A model generated the notes under the pieces. That model worked only from the letters and a program-made list of their open reading frames with translations. It made no database searches and had not been told where the DNA came from. The translations under genes and the position numbers were made by a program. A stretch of 64,000 nt of DNA from Octopus vulgaris (Eukaryota), in contig OX597827.1 of assembly GCA_951406725.2 (NCBI GenBank), positions 26,226,001 to 26,290,000 of the forward strand. Reading direction: 5' to 3'. Below, in pieces: positions 51,607 through 58,070 of this stretch. How positions within the stretch are numbered: the stretch's first letter is position 1; each line of letters opens with the position of its first letter.

Positions 51607-52664
51607 ACAGATTTATATATACACACACATGCACACGCAGGCAGATACAGAAGCATACGCACTAATACACACCAGCAAACGCACGACAAACTAATTCAAG
51701 CATGCAGTCGTATATGTATATTATATCTATAAAAGGAATGATGTGTGTGCGTGTGTGTGTGTGTCTGTGTACCTGATTGCAGTTTATGCACATCCACAAA
51801 TTAGCACGTACGTCGCTCAAATTTTAGGATATTCATCAACACTCTATCTGGGATTTGTCAACTTATTTTTTTCCCGTGGCACCCGCGGATAGCGGTAAAA
51901 TTCCATTTTCAGCCATTGATTTTAGCCATAAAAATATCAGCTATGGCTTTTTTGACGGCGTCTAACAAAAAAAAGATAAAGAAAAGTGGTAGAGGGGCAG
52001 AGAGTTTCACGGGAAAGACAAAGTCAGAGGGAGAGAGAGAGTAAGCGACGACGTTCATAAAAAATAAAATTTTAAATGTTTCGTTTTTTCTTAAACACGA
52101 GATATAGTGTTCAAGTTCAGGATGTTTTTGAAAGACACTATATTTTATAATCATAGTAAATATACTTTCTCACACAACAATTACAATATATTTATTTAAA
52201 ATCATTTATTTATTTTAAATCGTTCATCTTTCTCCGCCCCGCCCCCGCCCCCTCTCTCTCTCACACACACACTGCTTTGGGTGCGAAAGAGTCTTGTTTT
52301 TATTTTACCCTGAGTAAAAAAGTGCTTTGTTGACAATCCATTTATTTAACAACAAAGAAACAAAGCGGTAAGTAACAATTTGTCAGTGAATTACCCAATA
52401 TAAACGGGTACAATTTGCGAGGCATCCACCACACCCCACTCCGTTTCACGGACCAGAAAAAGTGTTTTCAGGCCAGAGTAGTTGATTCCACTAAAAAAAA
52501 ACCGAGTGAAAATCGTGCGAGTGTTAATCTACAAATGAACAACATTTTTTTCCATTCATTTCTGTTTGTGAACATGCATGCGTGCACAAAAAATGCAATA
52601 GGTGTACGTACCTACGTGTGTGTATGTGTGTTCGTGTCTATTGCCTATATATACTCTCTTTAAT

Positions 52665-53050
52665 CTCTTTTACTTGTTTCTCTCATTTGACTGCGGCCAT
52701 GCTGGAGCACCGCCTTTAATCGAGCAACTCGACCCCGGGACTTATTCTTTTGTAAGCCCCGTACTATCGGTTTCTTTTGCCGAACCGCTAAGTAACGTGG
52801 ACATAAACACACCAGTATCGGTTGTCCAGCAATGCTAGGGGGACAAACACAGACACACAAACACCCATACACGCATATATATATATATATATACATATAT
52901 ACAACGGGCTTCTTTCAGTTTCCGTCTACCAAATCCACTCACAAGGCTATAGTAGAAGACACTTGCGCAAGGTGCCACGCAGTGGGACTGAACCCGGAAC
53001 CATGTGGTTGGTAAACAAGCTACTTACCACAGAGCCACTCCTGCGCCTAT
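52665..53050 (-). mobile_element. SINE family B, young copy
   Basis: Close to the family consensus on the minus strand. Confidence 0.9.
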
Positions 53051-53084
53051 ATTTGTATTATATTATATATAATATATATATATT

Positions 53085-53210
53085 ATAACTAATTTCAACG
53101 TATTTCGCCCAAATTTGACGTCTATATTACTTAGTTTGGTTTAAGATAAAGAACTTGATTAGCTTAATAATCGTAACTTAATCCCGGGAAAGGCCGGGTT
53201 ATACTGCTAG

Positions 53211-53211
<1 letters not shown>
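53085..53211 (+). mobile_element. Helitron 3' terminus
   Basis: GC hairpin cccgg gaaagg ccggg (53183-53198), followed 8 nt later by CTAG (53207-53210) and T, the canonical Helitron end. Confidence 0.65.
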
Positions 53212-53274
<63 letters not shown>

Positions 53275-53460
53275 TGCAGGCGGGGCTGTGCGCGGTAAAA
53301 AGCGCTTGCTTCCCAACAACATGGGTTCGGGTTCAGTCCCTCTTCGTGGCACCTTGGGCAAGTGTCTTCTACTACAGTTTCGGGCCGACCAAAGCCTCGT
53401 GAGTCGATTTGGTACACGGAACCTGAAAGAAGCCCGTCGTATATAACATATATGTGTACG

Positions 53461-53504
<44 letters not shown>

Positions 53505-53604
53505 TATGTTATATACGACGGGCTTCTTCAGGTTCCGTGTACCAAATCGACTCACGAGGCTTGCTGTAGTAGTATATATATATACATATATATATATATT
53601 TATA

Positions 53605-53987
53605 TGGAAGCACTCCGTCGGTTACGACGACGAGGGTTCCGGTTGATCCGATCAACGGAACAGCCTGCTCGTGAAATTAACGTGTAAGTGGCTGAGCACT
53701 CCACAGACACGTGTACCCTTAACGCAGTTCTCGGGGATATTCAGCTTGACACAGAGAGTGACAAGGCCGGCCCTTTGAAATACAGGTTCAACAGAAACAG
53801 GAAGTAAGAGTGAGAGAAAGTTGTGGTGAAAGAGTACAGCACGGATCGCCACCACCCCCTGCTGGAGACTCGTGGAGCTTTAGGTGTTTTCGCTCAATAA
53901 ACACTCACAACGCCCGGTCTGGGAATCGAAACCGCGATCCTACGACCGCGAGTCCGCTGCCCTAACCACTGGGCCATTGCGCCTCCA
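53605..53987 (-). mobile_element. SINE family C, full length, tRNA-derived
   Basis: Minus strand starts ggaggcgcaaTGGCCCAGTGGttagggcagcggactcgcgg...GGTTTCGATTCCcagacc (A and B boxes); flanked by TA runs. Confidence 0.85.
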
Positions 53988-53988
53988 C

Positions 53989-54039
<51 letters not shown>

Positions 54040-54780
54040 ATATGTGTGCCTGTTTTTGTCGCGCCACCATTTCCCTAAATCCACTGTTGGTGCGCTTACC
54101 TCCCTGTAAATCAACGGTTCGGCAAAAGAAACCGATAGGATAAGTACTATGCTTACAAAGAATAAGTCCTGGGGTTGATTCGTTCGACTAAATGCAGTGC
54201 TCCAGCATGGCCTCAGACAAATGATTGAAACAAGTAAAAGACTTAAAAGAATAAAAGAATATATATATGTATATATATATATACACACGCATATGCAAAT
54301 ATAAAGACACACAAGGAGACATGGACACAAACAGACACACAAATATATACATATCCACAACCGCATACACACAGGCCCAGACATACCCCGCCTCAATGCC
54401 CATACATTACACACATACATACCATTCCATTAGTCTCACATTGCTCATTAATCACACATCCAGACAGGCGTCAATCATGCAGCTATTAACCTTACTCCTC
54501 CTTCTACTCCACCTCCTAAATCCCCTTCCTGTTGTTTTTTTTTAATGAACAAACCGACATCTTTAATCCCGGTGACTTTCATCAATTGTCATAACTCTTC
54601 GATGTTGTCTTTACCAACCTACATTATTTCCAGCATTATCACACGGGTTAATTGCAAGAAAATATTCATTAATTTATCTAGTTATTATTATTATTATAGC
54701 AGTAGGAGTTTTAGTGGTGGTGGTGGTTGTGGTGGTGATGGCCGTGGTGGTAGTAGTGGTGTCAGTATTATTATTATTAT

Positions 54781-54937: not shown

Positions 54938-55057
<120 letters not shown>

Positions 55058-55072
55058 GTATGTATGTGTATA

Positions 55073-55103
<31 letters not shown>

Positions 55104-55105
<2 letters not shown>

Positions 55106-55288
55106 CAACAATCAAGGAACGGCCATAATAGGCCATTCACCCACTAGAAATAACAGCCAAAAGCTTTAACCGCAAAATAACGTCAATTCCGTAAACCAGG
55201 AGAAAATTGAAAAACATTTACCCTGTAATTTCTTAGACGATGCACCGTTTCATCTTCTGTTTTATGGAAAACTAACCTGATTAAATTA
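55104..55288 (-). repeat. Inverted partial copy (about 185 bp) of the 493-bp unit
   Basis: Reverse complement of about 55719-55903 with one mismatch; overlaps the forward array by AAATTA (55283-55288). Confidence 0.95.
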
Positions 55289-55672
55289 CAGGGTAAATGT
55301 TTTTCAATTTTCTCCTGGTTTACGGAATTGACGTTATTTTGCGGTTAAAGCTTTTGGCTGTTATTTCTAGTGGGTGAATGGCCTATTATGGCCGTTCCTT
55401 GATTGTTGATGTTGAACTTAAAAATGGTTTATGACTATTTAATTTTTTCCCACTAGGCCGCTGGTGGCAAAAGAATTCTACAAAATTTTTTTTGCCACCC
55501 TATATTGATTAATTATGAATTTTCTGGTTAATTCCGTAATGGAATCGGCGGCTTATATTTATTTGCTGCCGATAAATTTGGCGCGAGTGCGACGATTTGA
55601 AAATTTTAGGTCAGATATTGACGAGGTAGTAATGAGAATGCCTCGTGAAAAATATCTGTTCCGGTTTTGGCT

Positions 55673-55779
55673 ATTTCTTACTGATGAATCTAAGGGCCTA
55701 TGGTAGATTGGCTTGATTTAATTTAATCAGGTTAGTTTTCCATTAAACAGAAGATGAAACGGTGCATCGTCTAAGAAAT
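55673..55779 (+). ncRNA. Type I hammerhead ribozyme, unit 1
   Basis: atttctta CTGATGA atct...agat GAAA cg gtgcat cg TC taagaaat: 8-bp stem I, intact core, GUC cleavage after 55771. Confidence 0.93.
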
Positions 55780-56165
55780 TACAGGGTAAATGTTTTTCAA
55801 TTTTCTCCTGGTTTACGGAATTGACGTTATTTTGCGGTTAAAGCTTTTGGCTGTTATTTCTAGTGGGTGAATGGCCTATTATGGCCGTTCCTTGATTGTT
55901 GATGTTGAACTTAAAAATGGTTTATGACTATTTAATTTTTTCCCACTAGGCCGCTGGTGGCAAAAGAATTCTACAAAATTTTTTTTGCCACCCTATATTG
56001 ATTAATTATGAATTTTCTGGTTAATTCCGTAATGGAATCGGCGGCTTATATTTATTTGCTGCCGATAAATTTGGCGCGAGTGCGACGATTTGAAAATTTT
56101 AGGTCAGATATTGACGCGGTAGTAATGAGAATGCCTCGTGAAAAATATCTGTTCCGGTTTTGGCT

Positions 56166-56272
56166 ATTTCTTACTGATGAATCTAAGGGCCTATGGTAGA
56201 TTGGCTTGATTTAATTTAATCAGGTTAGTTTTCCATTAAACAGAAGATGAAACGGTGCATCGTCTAAGAAAT
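56166..56272 (+). ncRNA. Type I hammerhead ribozyme, unit 2
   Basis: Identical to unit 1. Confidence 0.93.
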
Positions 56273-56658
56273 TACAGGGTAAATGTTTTTCAATTTTCTC
56301 CTGGTTTACGGAATTGACGTTATTTTGCGGTTAAAGCTTTTGGCTGTTATTTCTAGTGGGTGAATGGCCTATTATGGCCGTTCCTTGATTGTTGATGTTG
56401 AACTTAAAAATGGTTTATGACTATTTAATTTTTTCCCACTAGGCCGCTGGTGGCAAAAGAATTCTACAAAATTTTTTTTGCCACCCTATATTGATTAATT
56501 ATGAATTTTCTGGTTAATTCCGTAATGGAATCGGCGGCTTATATTTATTTGCTGCCGATAAATTTGGCGCGAGTGCGACGATTTGAAAATTTTAGGTCAG
56601 ATATTGACGAGGTAGTAATGAGAATGCCTCGTGAAAAATATCTGTTCCGGTTTTGGCT

Positions 56659-56765
56659 ATTTCTTACTGATGAATCTAAGGGCCTATGGTAGATTGGCTT
56701 GATTTAATTTAATCAGGTTAGTTTTCCATTAAACAGAAGATGAAACGGTGCATCGTCTAAGAAAT
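56659..56765 (+). ncRNA. Type I hammerhead ribozyme, unit 3
   Basis: Identical to unit 1. Confidence 0.93.
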
Positions 56766-57151
56766 TACAGGGTAAATGTTTTTCAATTTTCTCCTGGTTT
56801 ACGGAATTGACGTTATTTTGCGGTTAAAGCTTTTGGCTGTTATTTCTAGTGGGTGAATGGCCTATTATGGCCGTTCCTTGATTGTTGATATTGAACTTAA
56901 AAATGGTTTATGACTATTTAATTTTTTCCCACTAGGCCGCTGGTGGCAAAATAATTCTACAAAATTTTTTTTGCCACCCTATATTGATTAATTATGATAT
57001 TTCTGGTTAATTCCGTAATGGAATCGGCGGCTTATATTTATTTGCTGCCGATAAATTTGGCGCGAGTGCGACGATTTGAAAATTTTAGGTCAGATATTGA
57101 CGAGGTAGTAATGAGAATGCCTCGTGAAAAATATCTGTTCCGGTTTTGGCT

Positions 57152-57258
57152 ATTTCTTACTGATGAATCTAAGGGCCTATGGTAGATTGGCTTGATTTAA
57201 TTTAATCAGGTTAGTTTTCCATTAAACAGAAGATGAAACGGTGCATCGTCTAAGAAAT
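57152..57258 (+). ncRNA. Type I hammerhead ribozyme, unit 4
   Basis: Identical to unit 1. Confidence 0.93.
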
Positions 57259-57481
57259 TACAGGGTAAATGTGTTTCAATTTTCTCCTGGTTTACGGAAT
57301 TGACGTTATTTTGCGGTTAAAGCTTTTGGCTGTTATTTCTAGTGGGTGAATGGCCTATTATGGCCGTTCCTTGATTGTTGATGTTGAACTTAAAAATGGT
57401 TTATGACTATTTAATTTTTTCCCACTAGGCCGCTGGTGGCAAAAGAATTCTACAAATTTTTTTTTGCCACCCTATATTGAT

Positions 57482-57579
<98 letters not shown>

Positions 57580-57589
57580 CGTGATCACC

Positions 57590-57697
57590 GTGACCGACAA
57601 GGCTATCAGATGTTGCTACATATCGCCGGTCACAATGCGCTTCGCATTGTTTTAGCCTTCAAATGACGCCACCCCGCTGGCTAAGCGGGCAGGCCAA
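57590..57697. mobile_element. 108-bp (TA)n-embedded element, copy 3
   Basis: Matches 20961-21068; preceded by caccgtgat-cacc short repeats. Confidence 0.8.
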
Positions 57698-57724
57698 TAT
57701 ATATATATATATATATATATATTG

Positions 57725-58070
57725 TTTGTTTTACTTATTTCAGTCATTCGACTGGAGTAACGCCTTTAGTCGACCAAATCGACTCCAGGGTTTTATTCTT
57801 TGTAAGCCTTAGTACCTATTCTATCGCTCACTTTTGCCGAATCGCTAATTTACGGGGACGTAAACACACCAACATCGGTTTTCAAGCAATGGTTGGGGAA
57901 CAAACTGAAACACATACACACATGTATATATGTATGTATGTATGTATGTAAGTATGTATGTATGTATGTATGTATGTATGTATATGACGGGTTTCTTTCA
58001 GTTTTCGTGAACCAAATTGCCACGCAGTGAGACTGAACCCGGAACCATTGATTTGAAAGCAAGCTTCTTA
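57725..58070 (-). mobile_element. SINE family B, internally deleted (another 3' half at 60630-60820)
   Basis: Family B motifs. Confidence 0.75.

Follow-up and report, generated by a model that had tools for sequence, protein, structure and literature searches.

A 493-nt tandem repeat in the octopus genome is a probable hammerhead retrozyme, likely inserted by Penelope-like enzymes

Introduction

What is a 493-nt sequence that stands in tandem in the genome of Octopus vulgaris and whose RNA is predicted to fold into a branched structure? The window, a 64,000-nt stretch of contig OX597827.1 read on its forward strand, holds an array of this sequence that a first-pass annotation took for a viroid-like RNA, its + strand marked out by G-U pairs. 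The likeness stands as one of shape; as an identity it fails, since the sequence is a genomic repeat with a ribozyme core of one polarity and a retrotransposon-type footprint. The repeat is a retrozyme, a known kind of animal parasite, and not a viroid.

The DNA displays tandem units with a full hammerhead each, covariation, a copy number, TA targets, two fixed 3' ends and homogeneous arms. From these features we consider it probable that the repeat is a non-LTR retrozyme: a protein-free hammerhead tandem repeat whose + strand RNA would cut itself to unit length and, likely as a circle, would be copied into (TA)n by a Penelope-like enzyme with reverse transcriptase (RT) and GIY-YIG domains.

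Results

A tandem array between TA microsatellites

The array comprises 4.5 tandem units of 493 nt that match at 99% and differ from one another at 0-6 positions. It is preceded by an inverted short arm containing the 3' half of the hammerhead only, and the whole insertion sits between TA microsatellites.

54947..55105, no strand: (TA)n microsatellite, left flank of the insertion target
55104..55288, - strand: inverted short arm (monomer 441-493 plus 1-132), with its 3' end at S1
55283..57488, + strand: long arm of 4.5 units, from monomer position 5 to the fixed 3' end S2 (position 238)
55320..55660, + strand: branched body of unit 1, a multi-branch domain closed by the long-range helix 55320-32/55527-39, with more hairpins after it
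55399..55412, + strand: S1 (monomer ~121-134), TTGATTG motif, mostly unpaired; putative reverse-transcription start 1
55504..55516, + strand: S2 (monomer ~226-238), TTGATTA motif, within a 27-nt unpaired stretch; putative reverse-transcription start 2
55673..55779, + strand: hammerhead 1, type I, predicted cut after C55771
56166..56272, + strand: hammerhead 2, predicted cut 56264/56265
56659..56765, + strand: hammerhead 3, predicted cut 56757/56758
57152..57258, + strand: hammerhead 4, predicted cut 57250/57251
55772-56264, 56265-56757 and 56758-57250, + strand: cut-to-cut units
57485..57576, no strand: (TA)46 microsatellite, right flank of the insertion target

The 493-nt units have no stop-to-stop frame above 65 amino acids and are thus non-coding, and the RT plus GIY-YIG open reading frame (ORF) that is the hallmark of autonomous Penelope-like elements is absent from the element. 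The monomer has a G+C content of 178/493 (36%), with 58% of it paired in the predicted fold. On both sides of the array (52500-54370 and 57600-57900) lie short repeats that are of very high copy number, judging by depth, and probably SINE-like.

A type I hammerhead in each unit

The interval that the first-pass annotation assigned to the folded RNA, 55320..55779, itself contains a type I hammerhead that its text overlooked. Helix I pairs 55673-80 with 55772-79 and encloses the core CUGAUGA (55681-87), a helix II of 68 nt (55688-55755), the GAA at 55756-58, a palindromic helix III (55759-70) and GUC, with the predicted cut at 55771/55772. Cores are found in the window at 55681, 56174, 56667 and 57160, each with helices I-III; on the - strand we found no hammerhead core.

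The motif is kept, with its long helix II and palindromic helix III, in four lineages. Eight sublineage examples, six of which had been found by core patterns, all have an intact core (CUGANGA...GAAA...GUH), and in all eight helix III is a self-complementary 12-mer whose homodimer is predicted at -13.6 to -18.8 kcal/mol; helix II measures 64-77 nt across the family. Compensatory change has turned an A-U pair of helix I into G-C, has rewritten the base of helix II, which is still paired, and has also affected helix III. In the young, multi-copy lineage B (L075 and other loci) the helix II base has an A-A mismatch where lineages C and D have G-C.

In the monomer the predicted pair probability of helix III is 0.01, and the active fold would cost 4.9 kcal/mol in the circle. 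Metazoan hammerheads have been described as having a weak palindromic helix III, needing two tandem ribozymes and acting as dimers (Cervera and de la Pena, PMC4209133, sections cited). Eight of nine predicted Xenopus retrozymes reportedly failed to cut in vitro.

Rfam gave no match at gathering score in the whole window, and by E-value its six matches in 55600-56300 were weak and unrelated; the motif is probably missed owing to the long helix II. Since Rfam overlooks these ribozymes, standard scans likely undercount hammerheads of this kind.

An older sublineage, at 90-92% identity (L061:557-1047 and L068:2449-2945), is marked by a CUGAAGA core, GUA as its cut triplet and a loop 3 of TATA; in one of the copies the first pair of helix I is a compensatory G-C, and younger copies are inserted directly beside both. 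A pattern for the TATA-loop variant with GUC had no matches; that variant carries GUA.

Folding of the + strand

All nine helices that had been read by eye in unit 1 were found at their positions, and all nine return at 493-nt spacing along the array; in the helix at 55463-99 the 3' strand is really 16 nt (55484-99), one T longer than was written. Seven have mean pair probabilities of 0.80-0.99. The other two, 55341-61 and 55594-612, reach only 0.10 and 0.14, being outcompeted by alternative pairings that RNAalifold favours too, so that they were probably mis-paired in the first reading.

The + strand folds far better than its dinucleotide shuffles (z -5.5 to -6.9). For unit 2, against 40 such shuffles, the circular minimum free energy is -139.9 kcal/mol on the + strand (z -5.5) and -93.3 kcal/mol on the - strand (z -2.6); the raw gap between the strands is largely a matter of composition, because the shuffle means are already -109 and -74. 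The asymmetry recurs, with + ahead of - in four of four lineages (z, +/-: unit 3, -6.9/-4.7; A2, -3.9/-2.5; B, -6.1/-4.4; D, -4.8/-2.6). When G-U pairs were forbidden in unit 2, z was -4.8 on both strands, so the strand asymmetry stems from G-U pairs.

A strand-blind stem scan, in which Watson-Crick pairs alone were scored, gave a ratio of G-U to A-C of 9:1 among 17 internal non-Watson-Crick positions of the window unit and of 116:34 among 488 positions of its shuffles; in four relatives the ratios were 10:0, 7:1, 4:1 and 6:3, with shuffles at about 2-3.4:1. The G-U excess on the + strand thus holds, and as strand evidence it is weaker than had been claimed, because half of the G-U pairs (7 of the 14 among the 83 pairs of the nine helices) sit in the two helices whose formation is not predicted.

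A nearly invariant GCGGT at monomer ~63-67, in the alignment termed A1, has two conserved partners, ~179-183 and ~79-83, and may be a conformational switch.

Sister lineages and compensatory change

A pattern search of the genome revealed at least four endogenous lineages; lineage B has a unit of 474 nt at 72% identity (132 pattern matches), and lineages C and D have units of 490 nt at 76%. Across 17 aligned monomers, 90.8% of the 1373 cells in the 83 pairs of the originally proposed helices are paired, and 8 of the 83 pairs show two-sided changes, as against 4.0 +/- 1.3 in shuffles, one of 500 of which was as high, and 1-2 in slid controls. We take this excess as support and attach no p-value to it, because the aligned monomers are relatives and one of them supplied the structure.

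Within family A (41 loci), changes at the window's Watson-Crick pairs that are common to at least two loci comprise 7 G-U, 2 A-C and 9 others, and private changes 9 G-U, 12 A-C and 28 others. The five most frequent G-U changes have no A-C counterpart; the contrast between inherited and private changes is modest.

Taken together, the shuffles, the asymmetry in four of four lineages and the two-sided changes support selection on a folded + strand RNA, as the first-pass annotation had proposed. The + strand is fixed independently, because the hammerhead lies on the same strand. That the repeat is instead a DNA satellite or fold-back element, its palindromes acting as DNA and its RNA without a role, would fit the equal folding of the two strands when G-U is forbidden, and the insertions are indeed large inverted structures; a one-strand ribozyme core with covariation, the G-U excess, and dispersed TA-targeted copies with fixed 3' and variable 5' ends (see below) all speak against this reading, and make it extremely improbable.

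Genomic copies and sequence records

In the genome searched (2.8 Gb, 227 contigs), a 26-nt piece of the hammerhead has 956 exact matches and its reversed control none; full units at 96-100% identity lie on many chromosomes, and we put the number of dispersed copies at about a thousand. All the retrozyme features that DNA can reveal were found: at least two tandem hammerhead units, non-coding, short, below 45% G+C, self-paired, and dispersed in a genome beside Penelope elements.

Among 24 rows from sequence collections, 20 contain the stretch, none of them on record as RNA. Assembled contigs from six runs guessed to be RNA cover the monomer; contigs of this kind are uninformative on strand, ends, level and circles. 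Two of them have their first base at the predicted cut, others run across it, and we gave no weight to either.

Two fixed 3' ends in paired arms

We surveyed 88 regions, 87 loci and the window; the loci came from lists of ribozyme-pattern matches and best hits, a choice biased towards young, intact copies. Most of the insertions listed have TA-repeat flanks. Two-armed insertions, from whose arm-end tally one edge-cut array was left out, carry the S1 and S2 ends once each in 59 of 70 cases; in none of the 70 is the same site used twice, and the remaining 11, several in rearranged loci, have another end. The ends cluster at monomer 124-138 (S1) and 226-248 (S2), about 105 nt apart. One-armed insertions end at a fixed site in 23 of 25 cases (15 at S2, 8 at S1), and in lineages B-D the arms terminate at homologous places. 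Each site has the motif TTGATT and, in the predicted circle, lies mostly in unpaired sequence.

The inner junctions, where the arms have their 5' ends, are variable. Arms exceed one unit in 108 of 165 cases and reach 5146 nt (up to 10 units). The long arm in the window starts 4 nt past the cut, a hint of run-off at cleaved RNA ends; this idea was rejected, with 5 of 148 ends falling in positions 1-15 where 4.5 were expected. One insertion outside a TA run (L032:2094-2855) has an apparent 12-bp target-site duplication.

Divergence and alleles were analysed in 80 loci (440 units), leaving out 8 of the 88 regions with two insertions or rearrangements; homopolymer sites were masked here and in the periodicity analysis, and 3 of 41 rows were left out of one further set. 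Units diverge by 0.40% when taken from one arm, by 0.47% when taken from opposite arms and by 2.56% when taken from different loci, and 10 of 12 locus-private fixed alleles are present on both arms. The opposite-arm divergence and the shared private alleles indicate that both arms derive from one sequence variant.

A minority allele occurs in at least two units of one array in 27 cases, so rolling on a monomer circle alone is insufficient; duplication at the DNA level, oligomeric templates or errors of assembly play a part too. Along some arms minority alleles recur with period two (L218, L036, L223) or four (L216), which could reflect oligomeric circles, block duplication or assembly error. 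We did not adopt oligomeric circles from these patterns: there are too few cases, and a homopolymer adjoins one of the recurring sites.

The fixed ends also bear on whether the family is an exogenous viroid-like RNA, replicating from RNA to RNA and repeatedly captured by the genome. Its branched fold, G-U bias on the + strand and multimeric copies are what such a replicon might leave, and mussel retrozyme circles have been found to differ from database DNA, for which RNA replication was offered as a possible cause (PMC7229834, sections cited). Against this, at least four endogenous lineages have fixed Penelope-type ends in common, the - strand lacks a hammerhead core, Rfam has no match at gathering score and nothing observed calls for an RNA-only cycle; we regard an exogenous origin as very unlikely.

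Penelope-type elements as the likely helper

The rule of S1 plus S2 is the tail footprint of Penelope elements, here with a tail of ~105 nt. Penelope elements are described as leaving partial tandems with an inverted 5'-truncated copy, a microsatellite bias and a 30-40 bp tail (Craig et al. 2021, bioRxiv 10.1101/2021.04.23.441226), and a purified Anolis Penelope protein nicked and extended both strands, with two internal RNA starts defining the tail (Frangieh et al. 2024, PMC11167929), both as given in the sections cited. Insertions of the 493-nt repeat were therefore likely made by Penelope-type enzymes.

The same genome holds an intact family encoding a 781-amino-acid RT plus GIY-YIG protein, which inserts in (TA)n and has two 3' ends ~40 nt apart. 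This young, Penelope-type family (L184-L191 and L199; for example L190:981-5772) has a second ORF of 479 amino acids, and its pseudo-LTR has, by eye, an apparent minimal hammerhead with a U3-A8 core. Comparison of the monomer with 50 Penelope-type (GIY-YIG) loci by blastn and nhmmer, from a search in which 150 of 6136 candidates were scored, gave one nested retrozyme fragment and nothing else in common. Core patterns with a helix II of 10-62 nt had 7 matches, none beside a Penelope ORF in 3-kb loci (ORFs checked for one). At L196:6663 (+ strand), a hammerhead-like motif with a long helix II and a weak-looking helix I lies ~1.8 kb downstream of a GIY-YIG match.

Discussion

A model of insertion

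We propose that arrays would be transcribed from the + strand; that adjacent hammerheads would pair through their palindromic helices III and then cut as a dimer; that a host ligase would circularise the monomer; and that a Penelope protein would nick both strands of a TA run, S1 priming on one and S2 on the other from the same RNA variant. Each cDNA would then run through the cut site, making as many as 10 turns, and the pair of cDNAs would be joined at 5' points that vary. The RNA would be stabilised by its branched fold, which would also keep S1 and S2 single-stranded. Expression, cleavage and ligation we infer by analogy with mussel, coral and axolotl retrozymes (PMC7229834, sections cited).

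Arms that are long and homogeneous, and that continue through the cut site, are best explained by a circular template. Multimeric linear RNA left uncut would likewise give such read-through and is a possible template. On that account the same element is inserted by a Penelope enzyme from uncut multimers, the hammerhead is slow or has another role, and array length comes from DNA duplication. In the in vitro work on the Anolis element, unprocessed RNA was the main substrate and hammerhead mutants left insertion unaffected (PMC11167929, sections cited); here the 5' ends of the arms are indifferent to the cut site, and the block and period-two or period-four alleles of some arrays fit DNA-block duplication. 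Yet 5'-truncated copying would shorten the arrays in each round, and arms reach 10 units; the ribozyme has been retained, with covariation, across 72% identity; and arrays seem not to inherit mixed units, because 160 of 174 within-array differences do not match the allele that predominates at other loci. We judge an uncut template to be unlikely, and prefer the circular one.

A more specific reading is tentative, possible rather than probable: each insertion would be the record of one RNA circle, a monomer or sometimes a dimer or tetramer, copied through as many as 10 turns by a two-headed enzyme of the Penelope class whose subunits start at S1 and S2 on opposite TA strands. If this is true, the arrays record directly in the genome a rolling-circle, twin-site form of target-primed reverse transcription and identify the class of enzyme by which animal retrozymes are moved, and the conserved long helix II would be a protein handle or a switch that holds the circle uncut.

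Comparison with known systems

Hammerhead viroids (Avsunviroidae) are small branched RNAs with multimeric forms and hammerhead ribozymes in both polarities, and have no DNA stage. The octopus repeat resembles them in its small predicted branched RNA, its hammerhead and its multimeric forms; it differs in about a thousand DNA copies (the 956 genomic matches attest a DNA stage), in a ribozyme core on one strand only, in type I topology, in its animal host and in size (493 nt versus the 220-450 reported for hammerhead viroids).

The closer likeness is to metazoan non-LTR retrozymes, described in the sections cited of PMC7229834 and bioRxiv 10.64898/2026.07.22.740005 as tandem, non-coding and low in GC, with a type I hammerhead per unit, self-paired, and accompanied by Penelope elements in the genome. 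The 493-nt unit is longer than the 170-400 nt given by Cervera and de la Pena (2020, PMC7229834) and falls within the 51-972 bp of Li, Clavereau and Pollet (2026, bioRxiv 10.64898/2026.07.22.740005), and its helix II of 64-77 nt contrasts with the 4-bp stem of canonical metazoan hammerheads (PMC4209133), in each case as far as the sections cited go. Literature searches found no paper on a cephalopod retrozyme; neither 'Octopus' nor 'cephalopod' occurs in the main text of PMC7229834, though molluscan families or motifs with a long helix II might appear in its supplement or in those of the 2026 preprint.

Endonuclease-plus Penelope-like elements (10.1101/2021.04.23.441226; PMC11167929) share with the repeat, in the sections cited, partial tandems, an inverted 5'-truncated copy, (TA)n bias, two alternative 3' ends and a hammerhead near the ends. 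Unlike them, the repeat has no ORF, a tail of ~105 nt rather than 30-40, arms that are multimers of one short unit, and no sequence likeness to pseudo-LTRs in the 50 loci compared.

Penelope elements were named as mere candidates for moving animal retrozymes (PMC7229834), and in vertebrates the link was drawn from distribution and phylogeny (bioRxiv 10.64898/2026.07.22.740005); two fixed ends and paired inverted arms, seen here, are not described for retrozymes in the sections cited of these two papers. What the octopus family adds is a mechanistic footprint, namely two fixed starts, each used once per insertion on one RNA variant, with the ribozyme site read through repeatedly. Two questions thereby become directly testable on an RNA of 493 nt, namely whether a circle serves as template and what role the two Penelope-tail sites play, and the family is of use chiefly as a clean system in which to test circle-templated Penelope insertion.
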